Shown: positions 5,163 to 54,502 of the stretch, in pieces
How positions within the stretch are numbered: position 1 is the stretch's first letter
Layout: every line of letters starts with the position of its first letter
Assembly: GCA_964435035.1 (NCBI GenBank)
Contig: CAYSXR010000002.1
Location: 12,252-76,251, forward strand
Length of the DNA: 64,000 nucleotides
From: an uncultured Gammaproteobacteria bacterium
GTDB taxonomy: Bacteria > Patescibacteriota > Patescibacteriia > Magasanikbacterales > UBA922
Reading direction: 5' to 3'
Notes under the pieces: generated by a model
What the model was told of the DNA's origin: nothing
What the model saw: the letters and a program-made list of their open reading frames with translations, nothing else
Database searches by the model: none
Program-made: the position numbers and the translations under genes

Positions 5163-5579
5163 ATGGAAGAGGGTGTCTATATACTCCATCCACCTGCTCG
5201 CGTTCATAGGGGACCGCGGCCCCATAACCTCATCATCGGGCAGGTGTCCGGGATGATCCACGGCGGAATCGCGGTGTTTCCTGTGGCTGGCGGTGACAAA
5301 GAGCTTGTGCTTGTGTCCCTTCGTTCTCTCGAGAATGCAGATCGCAGCGATTGGAAGAGCAACAGCTGGTTCATGTTCACGGTCGTGTGTCTCGGCTGCA
5401 TCTTGGAGTCGGGAGAGGCCCGTACGTTTGATGGGATCTCTCAGCTCCACCAGCGCGGACTCCACTACATCTGCTGCAGCTTCGATCTCAGTCGTGTGCC
5501 CGATCGCACGGTCACGATCAAGCTTCTCCCGGACGAGCCGCCTGATCCGTCGAAGGGGGCCACGTTCCGTACCTGCTGA
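5163..5579 (+). CDS. Hypothetical protein encoded in high-GC island A
   Basis: Strong RBS AGGAGGG 8 nt before the ATG. On a sampled stretch GC3 (~78%) exceeds GC1, which exceeds GC2, as expected for the coding frame. The ORF track also shows overlapping ORFs in other frames and on the minus strand across the same high-GC stretch. Confidence 0.4.
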   Translation: MEEGVYILHPPARVHRGPRPHNLIIGQVSGMIHGGIAVFPVAGGDKELVLVSLRSLENADRSDWKSNSWFMFTVVCLGCILESGEARTFDGISQLHQRGLHYICCSFDLSRVPDRTVTIKLLPDEPPDPSKGATFRTC

Positions 5580-5766: not shown

Positions 5767-6066
5767 ATGCAACATGCGGTTACTGGCGCAATGAAGAAGG
5801 GTAAGGTACGACCCTTCACGGTCGATGATCTTCCTGTACTCGAGAAGAATGGCTACACCCTTCGGGTCAAGAGCTCGGCCATCGAGAATAACGACTTCGA
5901 GGTGGAAGTGGGTCCTCCGAGCAATTCGGCCTTTCAGGTGGGGACTGTTCGTACGTACGTGTTCCACGAGGGAGCACAGCCGGTCTACGATCCACGCCGA
6001 CGGTATGGCTACGCCGAACTCAAATTCGATCTGGCGACGTCTCACGCCACCCTCGAGCTCCGCTGA
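5767..6066 (+). CDS. Hypothetical small protein in high-GC island A
   Basis: ATG preceded by TGGGAG. The ORF ends just before a strong hairpin terminator at 6083-6117. Confidence 0.4.
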   Translation: MQHAVTGAMKKGKVRPFTVDDLPVLEKNGYTLRVKSSAIENNDFEVEVGPPSNSAFQVGTVRTYVFHEGAQPVYDPRRRYGYAELKFDLATSHATLELR

Positions 6067-6082
6067 GCCTCCGTGTCTTCCA

Positions 6083-6117
6083 TAGCAAGGACCTTTCCTT
6101 TCGAGGAATGGTCCTTG
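6083..6117 (+). terminator. Hairpin terminator closing high-GC island A
   Basis: CAAGGACCTTTCCTTTCGAGGAATGGTCCTTG: a 9-bp GC-rich stem. Confidence 0.6.
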
Positions 6118-6184
6118 CATCTTACATATTGTGGATACTGCTATTGTGGCAGTTTTTTTATATTATTTTTTCTTGGTATACTAC

Positions 6185-7441
6185 ATGTCTATGATATCTG
6201 ATGCTTTGCTAAAAATTGTAGCTTCACTTCCTCAGAATCCAGGGATTTATTTGTTTTATAATGTAAAAAAAGAATTAGTCTATGTGGGAAAAGCTACATC
6301 ATTACGAAGTCGTGTGCGAAGCTATTTTCTTGCACGTAAAACTCCTCGCCCGATTGAACAGATGATGCATGAGGTGATTACAATCAAATATATTGAAACT
6401 GATTCTGTACTTGAAGCAGTGATTCTCGAATCAATGTATATCAAAAAATTTCAACCAATTTATAATGTAGAAGGAAAAGATGATAAAAGTTGGAATTATA
6501 TTATGATTACGAATGAGCTGTATCCGCAGGTATATACAATGCGTGAACATGAGTATGTACGTCTGAGTTCTGATGAAATTAAAAAAGATTTTCTACACAT
6601 GTCCGGTCCATATCCTGGGTTGAATGCGAAAGTGACCATGAAGTTACTTCGAAGGTTATTTTATATTTCAACGTGCAAACCGAATGCGAAACGTCCTTGC
6701 TTGTATCGTCAAATGGGACAGTGTCTCGGTGTATGTACGGGAGAGATTACGAGTGGTGACTATCGGAGAAAAGTAATTCGACCCTTGATTACGTTTTTGT
6801 CAGGAGGAAAGAAAAAGCTTATTACATCTTTTGAAACTCAGATGGTGCGTGCTGCGCGTGCAGAGCAATTCGAAGAAGCGGCGCGTCTTCGTAATCAATT
6901 ACATGCACTTACCCGTATTCAGGATATTGCCCTTATTAATAAAGATTTCTTTGCTGATTTGGAACCAAAAAAAGAAGATACAATACACATGCGAATTGAA
7001 GGATATGATATTTCTAATTTAGGAAAGACAGGAAAAGTGGGGAGTATGGTGGTGTTTGATGCCGACGGGCCGATCAAACATTCGTATCGTAAATTTAAAA
7101 TTAAAACTGTTGAAGGGCAGAGTGATGTAGATTGTCTCGAAGAAGTATTAGTCCGTAGATTCAAGCATGTTGAGTGGAAATTTCCCACAGCAATTATGAT
7201 TGATGGGGGATATCCGCAAGTGAATCGCGCAAAAGAAGTGCTTACTCGACTCGGGATTGCAATTCCTCTGGTGGGTATTGCAAAAGGTCCGGAACGCAAG
7301 CGGAATGATTTTATTTTGGGTAATAGGGAGTCTGAGTTTGTGAAGTGGGTAGATCAACATCGAGAATTGTTGATCCGAGTAAGAGACGAAGCTCATCGTT
7401 TTGCGATTACATATCAAAGAAAGTTGAGGAAGATTGGATAA
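6185..7441 (+). CDS. uvrC: Excinuclease ABC subunit C, short form lacking the C-terminal HhH2 region
   Basis: N-terminal GIY-YIG (GIYLFYN..LVYVGKA), Cys-rich segment, and RNase-H-like endonuclease region (IEGYDISNLGKTGKVGSMVVFDADGP). Confidence 0.85.
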   Translation: MSMISDALLKIVASLPQNPGIYLFYNVKKELVYVGKATSLRSRVRSYFLARKTPRPIEQMMHEVITIKYIETDSVLEAVILESMYIKKFQPIYNVEGKDDKSWNYIMITNELYPQVYTMREHEYVRLSSDEIKKDFLHMSGPYPGLNAKVTMKLLRRLFYISTCKPNAKRPCLYRQMGQCLGVCTGEITSGDYRRKVIRPLITFLSGGKKKLITSFETQMVRAARAEQFEEAARLRNQLHALTRIQDIALINKDFFADLEPKKEDTIHMRIEGYDISNLGKTGKVGSMVVFDADGPIKHSYRKFKIKTVEGQSDVDCLEEVLVRRFKHVEWKFPTAIMIDGGYPQVNRAKEVLTRLGIAIPLVGIAKGPERKRNDFILGNRESEFVKWVDQHRELLIRVRDEAHRFAITYQRKLRKIG

Positions 7442-14893: not shown

Positions 14894-15000
14894 AGTTGTC
14901 TGGTTTCCTGGTTATCTAGTTGTCTGGTTTTAGAGGTTGTATTTTGACTATTTAGACTAGAAAACTAGACAACTAGTAAACTAGTAGACCAGCAAACTAA
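14894..15000. repeat. GTCTGGTT / CTAGTT word repeat forming a long inverted repeat
   Basis: GTTGTCTGGTTTCCTGGTTATCTAGTTGTCTGGTT ... AGACTAGAAAACTAGACAACTAGTAAACTAGTAGACCAGCAAAC. Confidence 0.75.
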
Positions 15001-15405: not shown

Positions 15406-15438
15406 TAAAAACTCCTGCTAAAGCGGGAGTTTTTTTAT
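15406..15438 (+). terminator. Rho-independent terminator after rplU
   Basis: AAAAACTCCTGCTAAAGCGGGAGTTTTTTT: hairpin followed by a T-run. Confidence 0.7.
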
Positions 15439-15493
15439 TGACTAATTTAGTTGAGTAGGTTAGTCTAGTGGCGCGTTACACCAAGGAGGGCGC

Positions 15494-16000
15494 ATGTTCA
15501 ATTGGCTCAAAACTCTGTTTGGTATTCGTAAGGGTCCCCCTGCACTGGAAATTGTGTGGAGTTCGTATACTCCAAAACCACTGCCACCGGCAACGAATGT
15601 CTGCTGTGTCGAGGGTAAGCATGGCGAACTCATCCACTACCGCTGTGGACACACTCAGCCTGAGAGGTACTCCTTCAATCTCTACGGAGATACAATCACC
15701 TGGGATGACGAGAATTACGAACGACGTGATATCTGTGGTGAGTGCTGGCTGGAGAAGCTTCATCCTGGTGTCATCCGCTGTGCGCGGTGTGGGCTCGGCA
15801 TTCCACCGGGTTTTCATGTTGCGCTCTACAATGATGATGAATGCTACAACCCGAAGTGGAAGACTGTGGTCACCGGGTATCCGGGTAAGATGGTGATCGG
15901 GTGTGCACGTGTCGACTGTGAGCCTGGCGGCTTTGTTGCCGGCGTGTGGATGGGTGATCGTGTGGATCTCTTGTTTGGTCAAGGCTCGATTTTCCTCTGA
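15494..16000 (+). CDS. Cys/His-rich hypothetical protein in high-GC island B (putative zinc-binding)
   Basis: RBS CACCAAGGAGGG precedes the ATG. Cysteine pairs CC, CGEC, CARC, CARVDC. Hairpin terminator downstream. Confidence 0.45.
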   Translation: MFNWLKTLFGIRKGPPALEIVWSSYTPKPLPPATNVCCVEGKHGELIHYRCGHTQPERYSFNLYGDTITWDDENYERRDICGECWLEKLHPGVIRCARCGLGIPPGFHVALYNDDECYNPKWKTVVTGYPGKMVIGCARVDCEPGGFVAGVWMGDRVDLLFGQGSIFL

Positions 16001-16143
16001 GTTCATCGCACCAAGAGACCTTCTCGAGAATCCCTCAGACAGTTGAGTTTCTACTCAGACATCCGACCAAGTGCTTGAAATCACTGTAGGTCGGATGTCT
16101 TCTCAAAATTAATATAATAAAATTCCGCTGTATTGGCGGAATT

Positions 16144-16743
16144 TTATATTGATGTTCTATTTTTTAGTGCACTCGAGAGGGTAATATCATCTGCATATTG
16201 CAAATCGCTTCCCATGGGGAGTCCACGTGCGAGACGAGAGACTTTGATTGCAGGAGTGATTTCTTTGATCTTTTTTTCGAGATACATCATGGTGGTTTCT
16301 CCATGTAGATCAGGATTGAGTGCGAGAATAATTTCTTCGATCTGACTTTTGCGGATACGTGCGAGTAGTTCGGGTATTTTTAGACCTCGTAATGAGTTTT
16401 CATCATGCCCTTTGATAACTCCTCGAAGTATGTGGTATCCACCGCGATACGTACCTGTTTTTTCTATTACTTCACGATCTTGGGGTTCAGCTACGATACA
16501 GACGGTCTTTGGGTCTCTTTGAGTTGAACTGCAGAGAATGCAAGGGTTGGTATCAGAAAATGTCCAACAGATTTCACAGCTTTTGACACTTTCGATAAGT
16601 TCTTTTAAGGCTAATGTTAGTTCGGCTACATCTTTTTTTCCAGATTTGAGCAAATAAAAAACAAAGCGTTCTGCAGTTCGAGGACCGACGCTTGGGAGAC
16701 TCCCGAACGCTTGAATGAGGTTTTGAATGCTCTTTGAATACAT
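16144..16743 (-). CDS. recR: Recombination protein RecR
   Basis: HhH segment (GPRTAERFVFYLL), C4 zinc finger and Toprim region. Confidence 0.9.
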   Translation of the reverse strand: MYSKSIQNLIQAFGSLPSVGPRTAERFVFYLLKSGKKDVAELTLALKELIESVKSCEICWTFSDTNPCILCSSTQRDPKTVCIVAEPQDREVIEKTGTYRGGYHILRGVIKGHDENSLRGLKIPELLARIRKSQIEEIILALNPDLHGETTMMYLEKKIKEITPAIKVSRLARGLPMGSDLQYADDITLSSALKNRTSI

Positions 16744-29092: not shown

Positions 29093-29111
29093 GCTTATTT
29101 TAATAACTATA

Positions 29112-29142
29112 AAAAAGCCTTTATTTTAAGGGCTTTTTTGTT
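29112..29142 (+). terminator. Terminator after rfbD; left copy of a 35-bp direct repeat
   Basis: AAAAAAGCCTTTATTTTAAGGGCTTTTTTGTTTT. The same sequence recurs at 30011-30042 with one mismatch. Confidence 0.7.
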
Positions 29143-29154
29143 TTTATACTGTTA

Positions 29155-29257: not shown

Positions 29258-29962
29258 ATGGCTGATAGTGATATCAGAGGTGTTTCTATGGGTTTCGAAA
29301 TGACGCCTATTCCGCCCGAGAAGGCGCGTGGGTGGAAGCTCGAGATCGATGGTGTCGAAGCTACGGCTTCGCTCATCGAGCTCGAGAGCAAGTTCGGAAA
29401 GCTGGTCTACGGTCTTCGCCCCGAAGGCTATGACAGCTGGGTGTTCTACGAGACCGGCGGGGGCGGGTCAGTGACCCTGCCCTTCAGCTGCAACGCCAAG
29501 ACGGGAGAGCTCCTCGTGGGTCTTCTTCCGGAAGTCCGCCCCAACATGGGCCCAGGTCTTCATCTGTGCATCGTTGGCGGCTTCAAGGAGCCGAACGAGA
29601 GCCATGTGGAGGCACAGGCTCGTGAAGCGGATGAGGAGGTTGGCATGGGCCATCTCGAGGCTATTGAGCTCGAGGGTTTGCCCTATAACTCCAACAGAAT
29701 GCTGTTCGTGGCCGATGCCTCTCAGGGTGAGGGAGTCCGCGCCTGGGGAATTCACATCCCATTCGCGTGTCTCGTGCCGAACGACGATGGTGGCTACCAT
29801 CTGACCAACCTCCAGCAGGCGGATGCTGATCGTCTCGGCAAGGCGAAGAACGTCGTCTTCTTCCCGTGGCATATCGCCACGAAGAAGACCTCTGACGCAC
29901 TCGCGCACGCTGCGATCCTGCAGCTACTCGCGATGCAGTGGGAGAACGGTCACATCCCCTGA
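29258..29962 (+). CDS. Nudix hydrolase encoded in high-GC island C
   Basis: Canonical Nudix box GGFKEPNESHVEAQAREADEEVGM. RBS AAAGAGGA. About 58% GC, against a low-GC genome. Confidence 0.65.
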   Translation: MADSDIRGVSMGFEMTPIPPEKARGWKLEIDGVEATASLIELESKFGKLVYGLRPEGYDSWVFYETGGGGSVTLPFSCNAKTGELLVGLLPEVRPNMGPGLHLCIVGGFKEPNESHVEAQAREADEEVGMGHLEAIELEGLPYNSNRMLFVADASQGEGVRAWGIHIPFACLVPNDDGGYHLTNLQQADADRLGKAKNVVFFPWHIATKKTSDALAHAAILQLLAMQWENGHIP

Positions 29963-30010: not shown

Positions 30011-30042
30011 CAAAAAAGCCTTTATTTTAAAGGCTTTTTTGT
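30011..30042 (+). terminator. Terminator after the island C gene; right copy of the 35-bp direct repeat
   Basis: AAAAAAGCCTTTATTTTAAAGGCTTTTTTGTTTT. Confidence 0.7.
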
Positions 30043-30108
30043 TTTACAAAACACTAGATTCTTGCTAAGCTTGAATATATCTCTATATTTAGTTTTATAG
30101 CCTATTTT

Positions 30109-49285: not shown

Positions 49286-49697
49286 ATGCAGGTATTGTAG
49301 CTAAGATGGCGAAATATCACAAGCTGGTTTTGGTTGACTTTCGGTGGGATGTATTGTATGCTTTTCTGCGGATTTTGCCCGAAGTACGGGTCCGTCACCC
49401 AAGTACTGTGGAGGTTAGTTCATGTTCACTCTGGTGTGCGTCATGGGACTCTGGACCCAGATCGTGTGTGTCCCGGACAAGGGAAGGAAGATTACTCGAG
49501 TTCGGAATCGCAAACATGGCTGGCACGTCGGAGGGGCGGGACAGCTTCCGATGGGTCATCGGCGGAAATTCAGGAAGCCGCGTTGAGTGACTGGGAGTGG
49601 TAGATCTGGGAACAGATCTTAGCTCAGGAGCGCTTTCCTGGATTCATCATGTCGTCGACGGGACTGTGCATCGCACGGTCCCGTCAGTTCTCTTACC

Positions 49698-49833: not shown

Positions 49834-50040
49834 ATGTCAGATTCAGAAAGAAATGATCAGCCGCGCCTTCGGAGTCGCCGTCGAGTCCATACTGCCGGAG
49901 CTTTCGATCACATTCAACGTGTGCTCGTCGACGAAGAGCAGAATATGCCACCCTATCGGAACGTAGGGCATCAGCAGCCCGGAGTGCGTCTCAGTGATGC
50001 ATGCATCATTCCCAACCAGCGGCCGGACTACAAGTCCTGA
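49834..50040 (+). CDS. Hypothetical small protein (68 aa) in high-GC island D
   Basis: RBS AGAGGAAA 7 nt upstream of the ATG. Arg-rich N-terminus. A bidirectional terminator lies at 50108-50134. Confidence 0.3.
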   Translation: MSDSERNDQPRLRSRRRVHTAGAFDHIQRVLVDEEQNMPPYRNVGHQQPGVRLSDACIIPNQRPDYKS

Positions 50041-50107
50041 TCCGTGATCCTCTTGCCCGGAGACTGCTCGCTCAATGCGAGTAGTCTTCCTGGCCCCTTC
50101 GTCAAAT

Positions 50108-50134: not shown

Positions 50135-51807
50135 TATGTTATTTCTTTAATCATGTACGTTCCTTCTTTTTTGTAGCCAAGCTTTTCATAATATCCCCGT
50201 ACACCTACTCCGGAAATTACGGCAAGTTTTTTTACGTTATTTTTTTTGGTAATGCGTTCAGCCTCGGCCATTAATTTTTTTCCATATCCTTTGTGCTGAC
50301 TACCGATTGTTTTTGTCTTTCCAATTCCAATCATTTGTCCGTATACATGGAGTTCACGGATGAATGCGCTTCCTTTGATTTCGGGCATGAGGGTGTGCAG
50401 GGTTTCTAGTTGTCTGGTTTTCTGGTTGTCTGGTTCGTGAGGAATGCGGAGACGAAGAAAACCGTAGACTGCGATACGATTTTTATCTTCCATTGAAATA
50501 AAGTATTCGGTCCCTCCAATAGTTTCGTAGGTGTCTACGAAAACGTGTGGTTCAGCGTCTGGATCTATCTTGTCTTTTTGGCGATAAATCTCTCGGCAAC
50601 GCAAACACTCGCAATGTTTTCCTTCTTTTTTGAGTTGGTACTCGAGCATTTCACGGAGGTTGGTGATGATATTTCCATTTTCAATTTCTGTTGCAGGAAT
50701 ATCTCGAATAAGTCGGGAAATACGGCAATAGCGTGGAGTTGCAAGTTTCATTTCGAGTAATGCCCGGAACAATCCTTCATCTCCATATGATTTGTAACGA
50801 CCATCTAAGAACCATTGGTATAATTCTGCTGATTTAATTACGGTGTTTGGATAAATCTTAATCATGTCTGGACGAAGTCCTAAATCTGAAAAGATTTCTT
50901 TATACATTTCAATATCATGTTCAGGTGTGGTTCCAGGTAAATCTGGCATGAAGTGTAAATCCACTTTGAATCCCGCTTCGCGAAGCAAATAAATTGCGTC
51001 ACGGAATTGTTGTACCGTATGTCCTCGATTGATCAGCTTTAAAATAGTATCATCAGTTGCTTGAAGTCCGAGTTCAATTCGCGTACAACCTTGTAAACGC
51101 ATGTGATGAATAGATTTCGGTGAAATTGCATCGGGTCTGGTTTCAAGGGTCAAGCCAATAATACGATGTCCGGTTGATTCATTGATGGTTTGTTCCATAT
51201 CTAATGCAGCTTGTAGGTCAGCAATAGATTTGTCATTCCAATATTCTTCAGGTGTGGGACCTATAGGTACTTCTCGATTGAAGTCATTGCAAGCTTTAAA
51301 GGATTCGAGAATAAACCAATATTGGTATTTGAGAGGGTAGGCATTCCAGGTTCCACCTTTTAATATGTATTCAATTTTGTCTGTTGGGTGTCCGTTCAAT
51401 TCAAGCATTTCAAGACGTTTTTTCATTTGCTCGTACGGACTAAAATCAAGTCTGAGAGCTCGTGCTGCTGCTGGTTCGGTGGCAATATAGCTTTTTGGCA
51501 TTCTAAGTTCGGTAGGGCAGTAAATGCATTTACCGGGGCAGGTATAGGGTTTTACCAGAGAGGTAATTATTACTACTCCAGAGAGTGTTCGCACATTTGC
51601 TTTGCGTAGGAAAAATTCCATCTGTTCGTCGGGTAGAATACTTTTCTTTTCAATAAGACTCTGGTAGGCTATGAGCAGTGCCTGATTTGCAGGCTGTCGA
51701 ATATTTAGCTTCGAAGCACCACGACGTTTTGCATCGTCAAAATCGTCCTTGGTTAGAGGCTTGTCGTCGACAATATATTTCATTAGTTTTTCAGCGATTT
51801 CGTTCAT
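50134..51807 (-). CDS. elp3: Elp3-family radical-SAM/GNAT protein (tRNA uridine-34 modification acetyltransferase homolog)
   Basis: Radical SAM core (CPGKCIYCP) and C-terminal GNAT domain (HKGYGKKLMAEAERI). 557 aa. Confidence 0.85.
   Translation of the reverse strand: MNEIAEKLMKYIVDDKPLTKDDFDDAKRRGASKLNIRQPANQALLIAYQSLIEKKSILPDEQMEFFLRKANVRTLSGVVIITSLVKPYTCPGKCIYCPTELRMPKSYIATEPAAARALRLDFSPYEQMKKRLEMLELNGHPTDKIEYILKGGTWNAYPLKYQYWFILESFKACNDFNREVPIGPTPEEYWNDKSIADLQAALDMEQTINESTGHRIIGLTLETRPDAISPKSIHHMRLQGCTRIELGLQATDDTILKLINRGHTVQQFRDAIYLLREAGFKVDLHFMPDLPGTTPEHDIEMYKEIFSDLGLRPDMIKIYPNTVIKSAELYQWFLDGRYKSYGDEGLFRALLEMKLATPRYCRISRLIRDIPATEIENGNIITNLREMLEYQLKKEGKHCECLRCREIYRQKDKIDPDAEPHVFVDTYETIGGTEYFISMEDKNRIAVYGFLRLRIPHEPDNQKTRQLETLHTLMPEIKGSAFIRELHVYGQMIGIGKTKTIGSQHKGYGKKLMAEAERITKKNNVKKLAVISGVGVRGYYEKLGYKKEGTYMIKEIT
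50401..50437. repeat. GTCTGGTT / CTAGTT word repeat copy embedded in-frame in the elp3 coding region
   Basis: GGTTTCTAGTTGTCTGGTTTTCTGGTTGTCTGGTT encodes the HEPDNQKTRQLET insert on the minus strand. Confidence 0.7.
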
Positions 51808-53140: not shown

Positions 53141-53428
53141 ATGCGGAGCTACCGATTGTTTACTGAAGCGGTCAAGAAAATCATCCCCGATGTCGAGCTG
53201 CATACAGCTCTTGATGCTCAGCAGGAGACGATCGTCGATAGCCTCCTCCCTCAGAATGTGGATGATGTTCCGATCGAGGTCATCATTTTGTATCTCGAAG
53301 GTGGTAGACATGGCGCGCTCCTCAAAAGGCTCAAAGGAGCTGAAGCTGTGCGTGTGCTCTTCGAGGAGTGGAAACATGGCAAGTGGAGCGACTGGGTCAG
53401 GGTGGGGGCGAGGCGCGAGGGTAGATGA
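53141..53428 (+). CDS. Hypothetical small protein (95 aa) in high-GC island E
   Basis: RBS CACCAAGGAGG 8 nt upstream of the ATG. Hairpin ACGTAGGGT..ACCCTACGT downstream. Confidence 0.4.
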   Translation: MRSYRLFTEAVKKIIPDVELHTALDAQQETIVDSLLPQNVDDVPIEVIILYLEGGRHGALLKRLKGAEAVRVLFEEWKHGKWSDWVRVGARREGR

Positions 53429-53495: not shown

Positions 53496-54383
53496 CTACG
53501 TTCCTGTAATCAGGCATGCGACCGACCCATCGAATTTCCATCCTTTGTCTAGAGCTTTTTGCAGTCCTGCGATTGATAGGGCAGAGTTTGGGGAGACTAA
53601 AATTTCACAGGTGTCCTCGGTGAGTTTGATTGCAGATTGAATTTTCTCATCGCTTACAATCCAACCAGATCCCTTGGATTTTTTTATTATGTCGATTACT
53701 TTTTCTTTTCGGTGAGCCACATTGTCGACAATTGCACTAGCGAGTGATGTTTCTGTATGGGTAAATTCTGTATCAAAATATTCGGCCATAGGGTGACAAT
53801 GTTCGGTTTGTACAATATGAATTTGTGGTTTTGGTTCTGATAGTTTTTCAAATTCAAGTCCTAGTGCTTGTGCAGTGGTTCCTGAAGATGTGGGAATGAA
53901 AATGGCGGACAAATTTGGAATGTGAGCGAGTTCTTTTGCGAGTTCAAAGTATCCCTCGAGTGCGAGGTCATCAGTTGATTGTCGGAGATTCAATGCGGTT
54001 CCTGTTTTGTGCATGTGAAGTGCTTCTTTTTTTGGTCGTTCGGTTTGTATAATCGTAATATGTGCATCTTCTTCTTTTTCTGTTTCAAGAATTATGAGTT
54101 TTTTTGGTTGTATTTTTTGTCCGACAAATACCGTGAGTTTGAGTGGGGTTTCAGTATTGTTTCGATTATGTGATCGTACATACTTTATTGCAGAGAGCGC
54201 TGCATTTCCAGATGATGAAATAACAAAAGACGTTTTATTTTCTTTTTGCACATAATGCTCAATCATGTGGGGAATTGAACGTCCCTTGTGCGATCCAAAC
54301 GCGTGTAGATCTTCACGTTTGAGGTACACTTCAACCCCGAACATGTCGTTTAGATTTTGATATGATTGTTGAGTAGTTTTCAT
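53496..54383 (-). CDS. PLP-dependent enzyme of the tryptophan-synthase-beta (fold type II) superfamily
   Basis: LKREDLHAFGSHKGRS lysine motif. Start moved to the internal ATG at 54383 so that it does not overlap the divergent promoter. Confidence 0.55.
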   Translation of the reverse strand: MKTTQQSYQNLNDMFGVEVYLKREDLHAFGSHKGRSIPHMIEHYVQKENKTSFVISSSGNAALSAIKYVRSHNRNNTETPLKLTVFVGQKIQPKKLIILETEKEEDAHITIIQTERPKKEALHMHKTGTALNLRQSTDDLALEGYFELAKELAHIPNLSAIFIPTSSGTTAQALGLEFEKLSEPKPQIHIVQTEHCHPMAEYFDTEFTHTETSLASAIVDNVAHRKEKVIDIIKKSKGSGWIVSDEKIQSAIKLTEDTCEILVSPNSALSIAGLQKALDKGWKFDGSVACLITGT

Positions 54384-54389
54384 ACATTT

Positions 54390-54418
54390 TTGACTATGGG
54401 AAAATATCGTGTTATAGT
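54390..54418 (+). promoter_or_regulatory. Sigma70-like promoter TTGACT-17-TATAGT reading toward the LysW-like micro-ORF
   Basis: Near-consensus hexamers with a 17-bp spacer. Confidence 0.45.
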
Positions 54419-54502
54419 TTTTCTTGCGCATATACTTTGCGCAACTTTATTTTAGTCCTGCCCCTGCTCAAGCTGTGGCAGACGATGTAAACACTACCAT
54501 GT

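Follow-up and report, generated by a model that had tools for sequence, protein, structure and literature searches.

The segment at positions 15438-16143 of the window (the whole 64,000-nucleotide stretch of DNA analysed) is probably a horizontally acquired, strain-variable and self-contained transcription unit with a single gene, which belongs to a family of zinc proteins. Taken jointly, the acquisition, the variability, the family membership and the zinc domain are well supported. The unit would be an acquired accessory cassette, a kind already known, with a gene from an unannotated zinc-protein family. Little is understood of how the tiny, streamlined genomes of the CPR/Patescibacteria acquire and exchange accessory functions, and this locus provides an example at base-pair resolution, with one gap that is either empty or holds one of three different GC-rich single-gene units. 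In the scenario that we propose, the unit would be made up of a TTGACT box and a strong RBS in front of a GC-rich ORF, with a GC hairpin of its own and a second terminator behind it. It would have become lodged in a chromosome of Candidatus Magasanikbacteria (Patescibacteria/CPR), with the terminator of rplU on one side and the stop codon of recR on the other, and could there be seen as a chromosomal analogue of the phage “moron”.

On the left, the host gene rplU (ribosomal protein L21; 15084-15395, plus strand; Pfam Ribosomal_L21p, E = 3.5e-35) is followed by an intrinsic terminator at 15407-15436 (-16.9 kcal/mol, z = -6.0) consisting of an A-run, a CTCCTGC/GCGGGAG stem and a T-run. The initial annotation had placed the block directly behind such a terminator, and comparison with an empty site (see below) indeed makes this hairpin the left boundary of the cassette. 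A promoter-like element, as read from the sequence, occupies 15438-15466 of the plus strand, with TTGACT at 15438-15443, a spacing of 17 nt and TAGTCT. The TTGACT box had been noticed before and is present, but it lies to the left of the start then given for the block (15455), the -10 hexamer TAGTCT is weak, and a consensus promoter scan left the element below threshold and made no call. It is kept at the same locus in two relatives (L004 and L041), and the TTGACT element is a candidate for use as a promoter. The RBS CACCAAGGAGGG begins at 15479 and contains the Shine-Dalgarno sequence AAGGAGG (15483-15489, plus strand), 4 nt 5′ of the ATG of a 168-aa ORF (15494-16000, plus strand); both had been described correctly, the ORF being present in the ORF list, preceded by a strong RBS and conserved, and its coding nature is borne out by dN/dS, a family HMM, the zinc-ligand columns and an AF2 model. 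Behind the stop codon lies a vestigial C-terminal coding remnant (16001-16039, plus strand), recognized by its in-frame match to the L004 ortholog.

Two hairpins close the unit. The first, specific to the cassette, is a GC hairpin with a 12-bp stem (16057-16100, plus strand; -24.4 kcal/mol, z = -5.7). It had been annotated as the gene's own terminator, and while the hairpin does fold, its terminator function is something we infer, since it is followed by UCUUCUC and not by a U-run; probably it serves the gene as an imperfect terminator of its own, or else stabilizes the 3′ end. The second, described at the outset as shared with recR, was found at 16117-16147 (-15.8 kcal/mol, z = -4.5); flanked by AT-rich sequence and called as a terminator on both strands, it overlaps the recR stop codon and forms the right end of the inserted segment. 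The convergent host gene recR follows at 16144-16743 on the minus strand (Pfam RecR_HhH, Toprim_4 and RecR_C, matched on an identical gene). The entire cassette, about 706 bp on the plus strand (15438-16143), sits in surroundings made up of uvrA, a clpB-like and an mraY-like gene, rplU, recR and dnaB. A search of the window against Rfam and for tRNAs gave no matches, and the GC islands are therefore not structured-RNA genes.

The rplU-recR gap was compared among genomes with an rplU at least 90% identical to that of the window and five flanking genes that are 85-93% identical, as well as with a more distant outgroup (L003/L004), the flanks of which share about 78% nucleotide identity with the window. 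In L043/L044 the slot is empty, with rplU, one bidirectional hairpin and recR, only 38 nt separating the genes and the single hairpin (in L043) serving both of them; this empty site delimits the insert to approximately 15438-16143. L041/L042 carry instead a 103-aa member of the family corresponding to its C-terminal half, behind the same leader as in the window, and L045/L046 a GC-rich ORF of 139 aa that is unrelated and has another promoter in front of it. Among the compared genomes the full-length gene is found in the window and in the outgroup. Independent assemblies (Logan, JGI, NCBI) gave the same rplU-recR junctions. At the level of sequence comparison, the gap is thus shown to be strain-variable and the gene to be an insertion, in agreement with the foreign look initially ascribed to it. 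The gene had further been thought to occupy the place of rpmA, an interpretation that we abandon: no compared relative has rpmA in this slot, which is either empty or filled with other cassettes, and there is no rpmA anywhere in the 64-kb window. One member of the outgroup pair, L004 (CAZCHJ010000019.1), is deposited as an “uncultured Gammaproteobacteria bacterium”, yet it shows synteny with the Magasanikbacteria loci and, over five genes, 78% identity to them, and the label is probably wrong.

The cassette does not appear to be a recent arrival, because an ortholog is found at the same position where the flanks are only 78% identical and dS is saturated (about 1.3 for the gene, with similar, saturated values in the genes on either side). 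Entry into the slot would then have taken place before the lineages of the window and L004 split. The half-length gene in L041 matches positions 78-159 of the family HMM (E = 5e-23) and, of the conserved ligands, has retained just the second CxxC and the Cys pair that follows it; it also has the CCPS motif of the family, whereas the window and L004 have CEPGG, so that it does not simply descend from the window/L004 gene.

The composition of the block sets it apart from its host, albeit less strongly than first stated. The initial figure of roughly 60% GC is too high, with 51.8% over 15455-16110, 52.7% over the ORF and 58% in the best 200-nt stretch, but the block is still an outlier: the window averages about 39.8-39.9%, the ORF has a z of 3.35, and its GC content is matched or exceeded in no more than 1.3% of stretches of 507 nt. 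GC3 is 55% in the window gene as opposed to 28-37% in six neighboring genes. Codon usage gives an intermediate picture for this cassette, with a correlation of r = 0.14 with the host genes and 0.38 with the other GC-rich cassettes of the window; for the GC-rich ORFs as a whole the correlation with the host genes is r = -0.33.

The ortholog at the same position in L003/L004, with a divergence similar to that of the flanks, is what one would expect of a native and vertically inherited gene, its GC content resulting only from a protein rich in Gly, Cys, Arg and Pro, and the initial annotation had named homologs widespread at this position in related low-GC genomes, with matching GC, as evidence against a foreign origin. 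A homolog does occur there in a related low-GC genome, but its GC does not match, its GC3 being 67%. In both copies the excess is one of third codon positions (0.55-0.67, as opposed to about 0.30), closer relatives have an empty site or alternative cargos, and in the low-GC genomes L011, L014, L024 and L052 members of the family stand out as GC islands at loci unrelated to this one. The GC3 values and the empty site largely refute this explanation, and we consider it very improbable.

Foreign DNA is more often AT-rich. For the present family, located on 23 distinct contigs, the GC content of the ORF exceeds that of the flanks in 21 of 23 distinct genes. The mean is 65% for the ORF and 61% for the host where the hosts have at least 55% GC (about 60%), as compared to 55% and 40% where the hosts have less than 45%. 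The most extreme island is that of L011 (57% in the ORF, 36% in the host), and in L052, another Magasanikbacteria genome, a family gene at an unrelated locus (6001-6579) has 60% GC in a host of 38%. Across the family the slope of GC3 on host GC is positive but only 0.79. Since the composition of the family is native in Patescibacteria of about 60% GC and forms an island in low-GC hosts, the simplest reading of these sequences would be that family genes passed from Patescibacteria of high GC to others of low GC and then ameliorated slowly. In line with this, most of the individual gene transfers detected in the Patescibacteria are reported to have taken place within the group (PMC12455944). The GC-richness of the cassette would accordingly have been inherited from high-GC Patescibacteria, and since its entry the gene has probably remained under purifying selection, while being partly ameliorated and losing a C-terminal tail. 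By a rough two-state estimate, a GC3 of 55-67% kept despite a dS of about 1.3 or more is above what neutral amelioration would leave, and selection on nucleotide composition, or a later exchange, might lie behind it. A second GC-rich stretch (56-58%) was seen at the contig end of L052 (1-600), which suggests that GC-rich islands are common across the phylum.

The gene itself is under purifying selection and encodes a real protein, as shown by a dN/dS of 0.205 over 167 codons between the window gene and the L003/L004-type ortholog. A word-indexed search returned only the gene itself and one protein of 66% identity, on a JGI contig (L003) with the context DUF192-rplU-X-recR; a scan of genome collections added a 17-kb contig from the same organism (L004), with one mismatch. 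A first metagenome scan with the close pair as query found no relatives. An exhaustive HMMER search of 1.84 billion representatives yielded 335 proteins at E ≤ 1e-3, of which 160 also passed E ≤ 1e-10, with lengths nearly always between 150 and 230 aa. To a family HMM built without it, the window protein aligns over positions 8-154 with 162 bits (E = 7e-52). The named source organisms are Magasanikbacteria, Pacebacteria and “Patescibacteria group”, and the family is apparently restricted to the Patescibacteria. No significant family was found in Pfam, NCBIfam, PHROGs or PADLOC, DZR_2 being the only sub-threshold match; no relative of the gene or of a typical family member was found in viral, phage, plasmid and IMG/VR collections, and no paralog elsewhere in the window. 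Among 67 neighbors of 24 family genes no recurrent partner gene emerged, the only recurring neighbor pair being TruB-X-IF2 in two contigs (L017 and L019). With at least 335 protein clusters that are without annotation in the searched libraries, the family is a target for structural and functional work. Among the hits, P0056 (540 aa) is repetitive and probably spurious, and the N-terminal extension of P0084 resembles a translated tRNA gene, so that its long form is probably a gene-calling artefact and not a domain fusion.

That the coding signal might be an artefact, of an antisense ORF, a structured RNA or an assembly chimera, can practically be dismissed. A full-length antisense ORF does exist (15476-16006, 176 aa), but it is not conserved, a 105-aa ORF being all that overlaps in L004, and chance alone would produce long ORFs on the antisense strand of GC-rich DNA. 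The lack of Rfam and tRNA matches, the hundreds of plus-strand protein homologs with invariant Cys and the recurrence of the junctions in independent assemblies likewise argue against it.

The protein is built of an N-terminal amphipathic segment (MFNWLKTLFGIRKG), a Pro-rich linker and a beta-rich domain. It had been called Cys/His-rich with a suspected zinc-binding fold, and this description was upheld: it contains 10 Cys and 5 His, the four Cys motifs quoted at the time were all found, and eight invariant or near-invariant Cys/His over 150 diverse homologs strongly suggest such a fold. Invariant across these 150 members are C51, C81, C84, C96 and C99, and conserved in at least 90% are G52, H53, G65, R95, G100, I103, V109, C137, C142, G150 and W152; all eight ligand positions and W152 are present in the window protein. 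The eight ligands are consistent with two zinc sites, putatively a Cys3His site (C51, H53, C81, C84) and a Cys4 site (C96, C99, C137, C142), a partition drawn because the half-length L041 member keeps the ligands of the second half; the assignment rests on conservation and on this variant, not on coordinates. Alternatively, the central CxxC-11-CxxC (C81/C84/C96/C99) could form a single classical zinc ribbon, and it is to C81xxC84…C96xxC99 that the weak, non-significant PDB and Pfam profile matches align.

The resemblance to C4 zinc ribbons (Rpb12/RPABC4, L37e, DZR/DZR_2) lies in C81-x2-C84, 11 residues and C96-x2-C99, that is, two CxxC knuckles spaced within 10-20 residues of each other. However, DZR_2 scores 14.9 bits against a gathering cut-off of 27, the E-values in the PDB are at least 0.037, weak matches of the DZR type occur in only 3 of 34 family members, and the domain of the family, about 130 aa long, has a beta-rich body and four more conserved ligands. 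A ZAS-type anti-sigma factor (HxxxCxxC) was also considered and rejected, the arrangement being H90-x5-C96-x2-C99 with an H90 that is not conserved in the family. The structure prediction proposed in the initial annotation gave a confident AF2 model (pLDDT 89.6, pTM 0.79) with the 150-sequence alignment, as compared to a pLDDT of 32 with a two-sequence alignment; no similar structure was found by Foldseek in the PDB or BFVD.

At the N-terminus, 47 of 150 members have a TM-like segment, and many others, the window protein included, begin with a basic amphipathic motif of the MFxWxK type. From these segments we infer a membrane-proximal cytoplasmic domain. The architecture of the family may thus comprise an N-terminal membrane anchor, a linker rich in Pro and Glu and a beta-rich domain held by two putative zinc ions, the anchor being a TM helix in about one third and possibly a basic amphipathic helix of the MFxWxK type in many others, among them the window protein.

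Within the family, the sequence of the window protein is that of a divergent and shortened member. Both it and L004 have CEPGGFV(A/V)G(V/I)W, in the window CEPGGFVAGVW, in place of the family's CCPSGGFFAGHW motif (the 150-sequence alignment being too diverse for pattern scans, the subset carrying CCPSGGFFAGHW was used for these). The window copy has an in-frame TGA where L004, in its 180-aa form, continues for 12 codons, and it is without the C-terminal “AE…TG” tail found in most members. The remnant behind the TGA reads VHRTKRPSRE in frame and aligns with ETVRTKKEIF of the L004 ortholog, and the shortening is therefore ascribed to a nonsense change. The use of TGA as a sense codon under an alternative genetic code was rejected, as the long host ORFs are intact under table 11.

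The loss by this in-frame TGA of a conserved tail kept by L004 and the family raises the question of whether the window copy is a decaying and non-functional remnant, an early pseudogene of an old acquisition. The replaced CCPSGGFFAGHW motif, the lower GC3 in comparison to L004 and a slot emptied or overwritten in sister lineages would fit such a decay. Yet dN/dS is 0.2 over 167 codons, the eight ligands, the RBS and the start codon are all intact, the protein still reaches 162 bits against the family HMM, and AF2 is confident for the domain that is retained, so that we consider a pseudogene unlikely.

The cassette is one of at least seven GC-rich ORFs in the window, there being at least six others besides the zinc-protein gene (cassette B, 15494-16000, plus strand). 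Cassettes A1 (5163-5579, 138 aa) and A2 (5767-6066, 99 aa), both without a Pfam match, lie between uvrA and uvrC; C (29258-29962) is a NUDIX-like ORF of 234 aa with 59% GC; D1 (49422-49586, 54 aa) is very basic with a hydrophobic N-terminus, and is followed by D2 (49834-50041, 68 aa); and E (53141-53428, 95 aa) has the same RBS sequence, CACCAAGGAGG, as B. All seven have TTGAC 56-103 nt upstream, for which P is about 0.04 at any one random position, and an RBS of the GGAGG type; past the stop codon, at a distance of 8-70 nt, each has a GC hairpin of 9-13 bp. In L047, where A1 and uvrC are not adjacent, uvrA is followed by an A2 homolog (6666-7028) that has the same promoter. Cassette C is bracketed by direct repeats of the host terminator, 34 nt long and 97% identical (29111-29144 and 30012-30045), and is missing from three relatives (L049-L051), in which a single terminator copy lies between rmlD and an SIS/PGI gene. 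D1 and D2 account for a GC island at 49.3-50.1 kb that had seemed to have no long ORF, and the 3′ hairpin of E extends into the end of a convergent host gene (53496-54431). Searches of viral, phage and plasmid collections with two other cassette cargos were negative, and PADLOC-DB v2 gave no match for the six other cassette proteins except one weak partial match for D1.

The recurrence of such units, seven in 64 kb, each with a strong hairpin at its end, together with three different cargos at exactly one junction after the T-run of the rplU terminator and the terminator repeats around cassette C, could be taken to reflect a dedicated site-specific mobilization that targets intrinsic terminators, in the manner of integrons, PATEs or MITEs and with a recombinase located elsewhere. 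This we regard as improbable. The hairpins are analogous and not homologous, no sequence being shared among 12 cassettes, and the junctions have no common core site or terminal repeat; the two terminators flanking cassette B are unrelated to one another, the 5′ leader is specific to the locus and does not travel with the gene, and no recombinase is seen adjoining any cassette. In consisting of one small ORF with a hairpin at the 3′ end, in occurring several times per genome and in varying between strains, the units do recall integron cassettes. In contrast to these, the cassettes of the window are scattered, possess promoter-like elements and an RBS of their own and have hairpins without an attC-like core, and no integrase is adjacent in the ORF list. 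The mechanisms of integron attC, IS200/IS605-PATE and MITE were rejected, as the cassettes are without common ends, and so was a mobile leader borne by the cassette, the leader being conserved at the rplU-recR locus only. As neither hairpins nor junctions share sequence and the leader is locus-specific, we claim no dedicated mobilization mechanism for the acquired unit. A mobile vector was not identified in the phage, plasmid and IMG/VR collections. Should GC-rich cassettes next to terminators prove general in Magasanikbacteria, they could mark gene exchange between Patescibacteria of high and of low GC content.

The closest parallel described may be the morons of phages, accessory genes that each bring a promoter and a terminator of their own and lie singly between genes adjacent in related phages (PMC4378225). 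Cassette B likewise is a single ORF with a promoter-like element, of presumed activity, and hairpin terminators, of deviant composition and inserted where a close relative has the two flanking genes side by side. It differs in its location among housekeeping genes of a cellular CPR chromosome with no phage genes nearby, and no viral homolog of its gene was found. With the islets and transferred genes of Patescibacteria (PMC12455944) it has in common an accessory nature, an atypical composition and an apparent exchange among Patescibacteria. That report, however, describes neither the zinc family nor a single-gene unit of promoter, ORF and hairpin, and the islands of the window differ from the islets in being 0.3-0.9 kb long and GC-rich in an AT-rich host.

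As for function, we tentatively suggest a membrane-tethered, zinc-stabilized binding module with a dispensable accessory role. Its partner might be a protein or a nucleic acid, and its role, for example, one in conflict or niche adaptation rather than a core one; because the gene is strain-variable, a role in conflict or host interaction is conceivable. None of five family members matched the defense models of PADLOC-DB v2. A bolder scenario, which we hold to be rather doubtful, is that of an unseen zinc-stabilized fold confined to the Patescibacteria and carried, between lineages that differ greatly in GC content, by a “chromosomal moron” system that is recombinase-independent or mobilized in trans, and the GC content of which is actively maintained and not a passing sign of transfer. 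Cassettes would then land preferentially just downstream of intrinsic terminators, and the seven GC-rich units would supply ultra-small genomes with genes for conflict or host interaction.

Some further observations concern other variable elements of the region. Genes encoding four-helix bundles of the 23S_rRNA_IVP/bAvd type are inserted between recR and ybaB in L045 (6562-6915) and between PGI and a glycosyltransferase in L051 (5121-5495), and they represent another kind of strain-variable single-gene insertion in the clade. Between DUF192 and the rplU promoter, the window contains an imperfect palindrome (14894-14998; 38-nt arms, 79% complementary) with AGTTGTCTGGTTT-type repeats, which is missing at the matching spot in L003/L004. 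The AGTTGTCTGGTTT 13-mer occurs eight times in the window as opposed to 0.12 expected, mostly in short tandem arrays, with copies near 905, 965, 25549, 50408 and 63864, at least that at 50408 lying inside a long ORF; these repeats could be a dispersed repeat or an array of binding sites.
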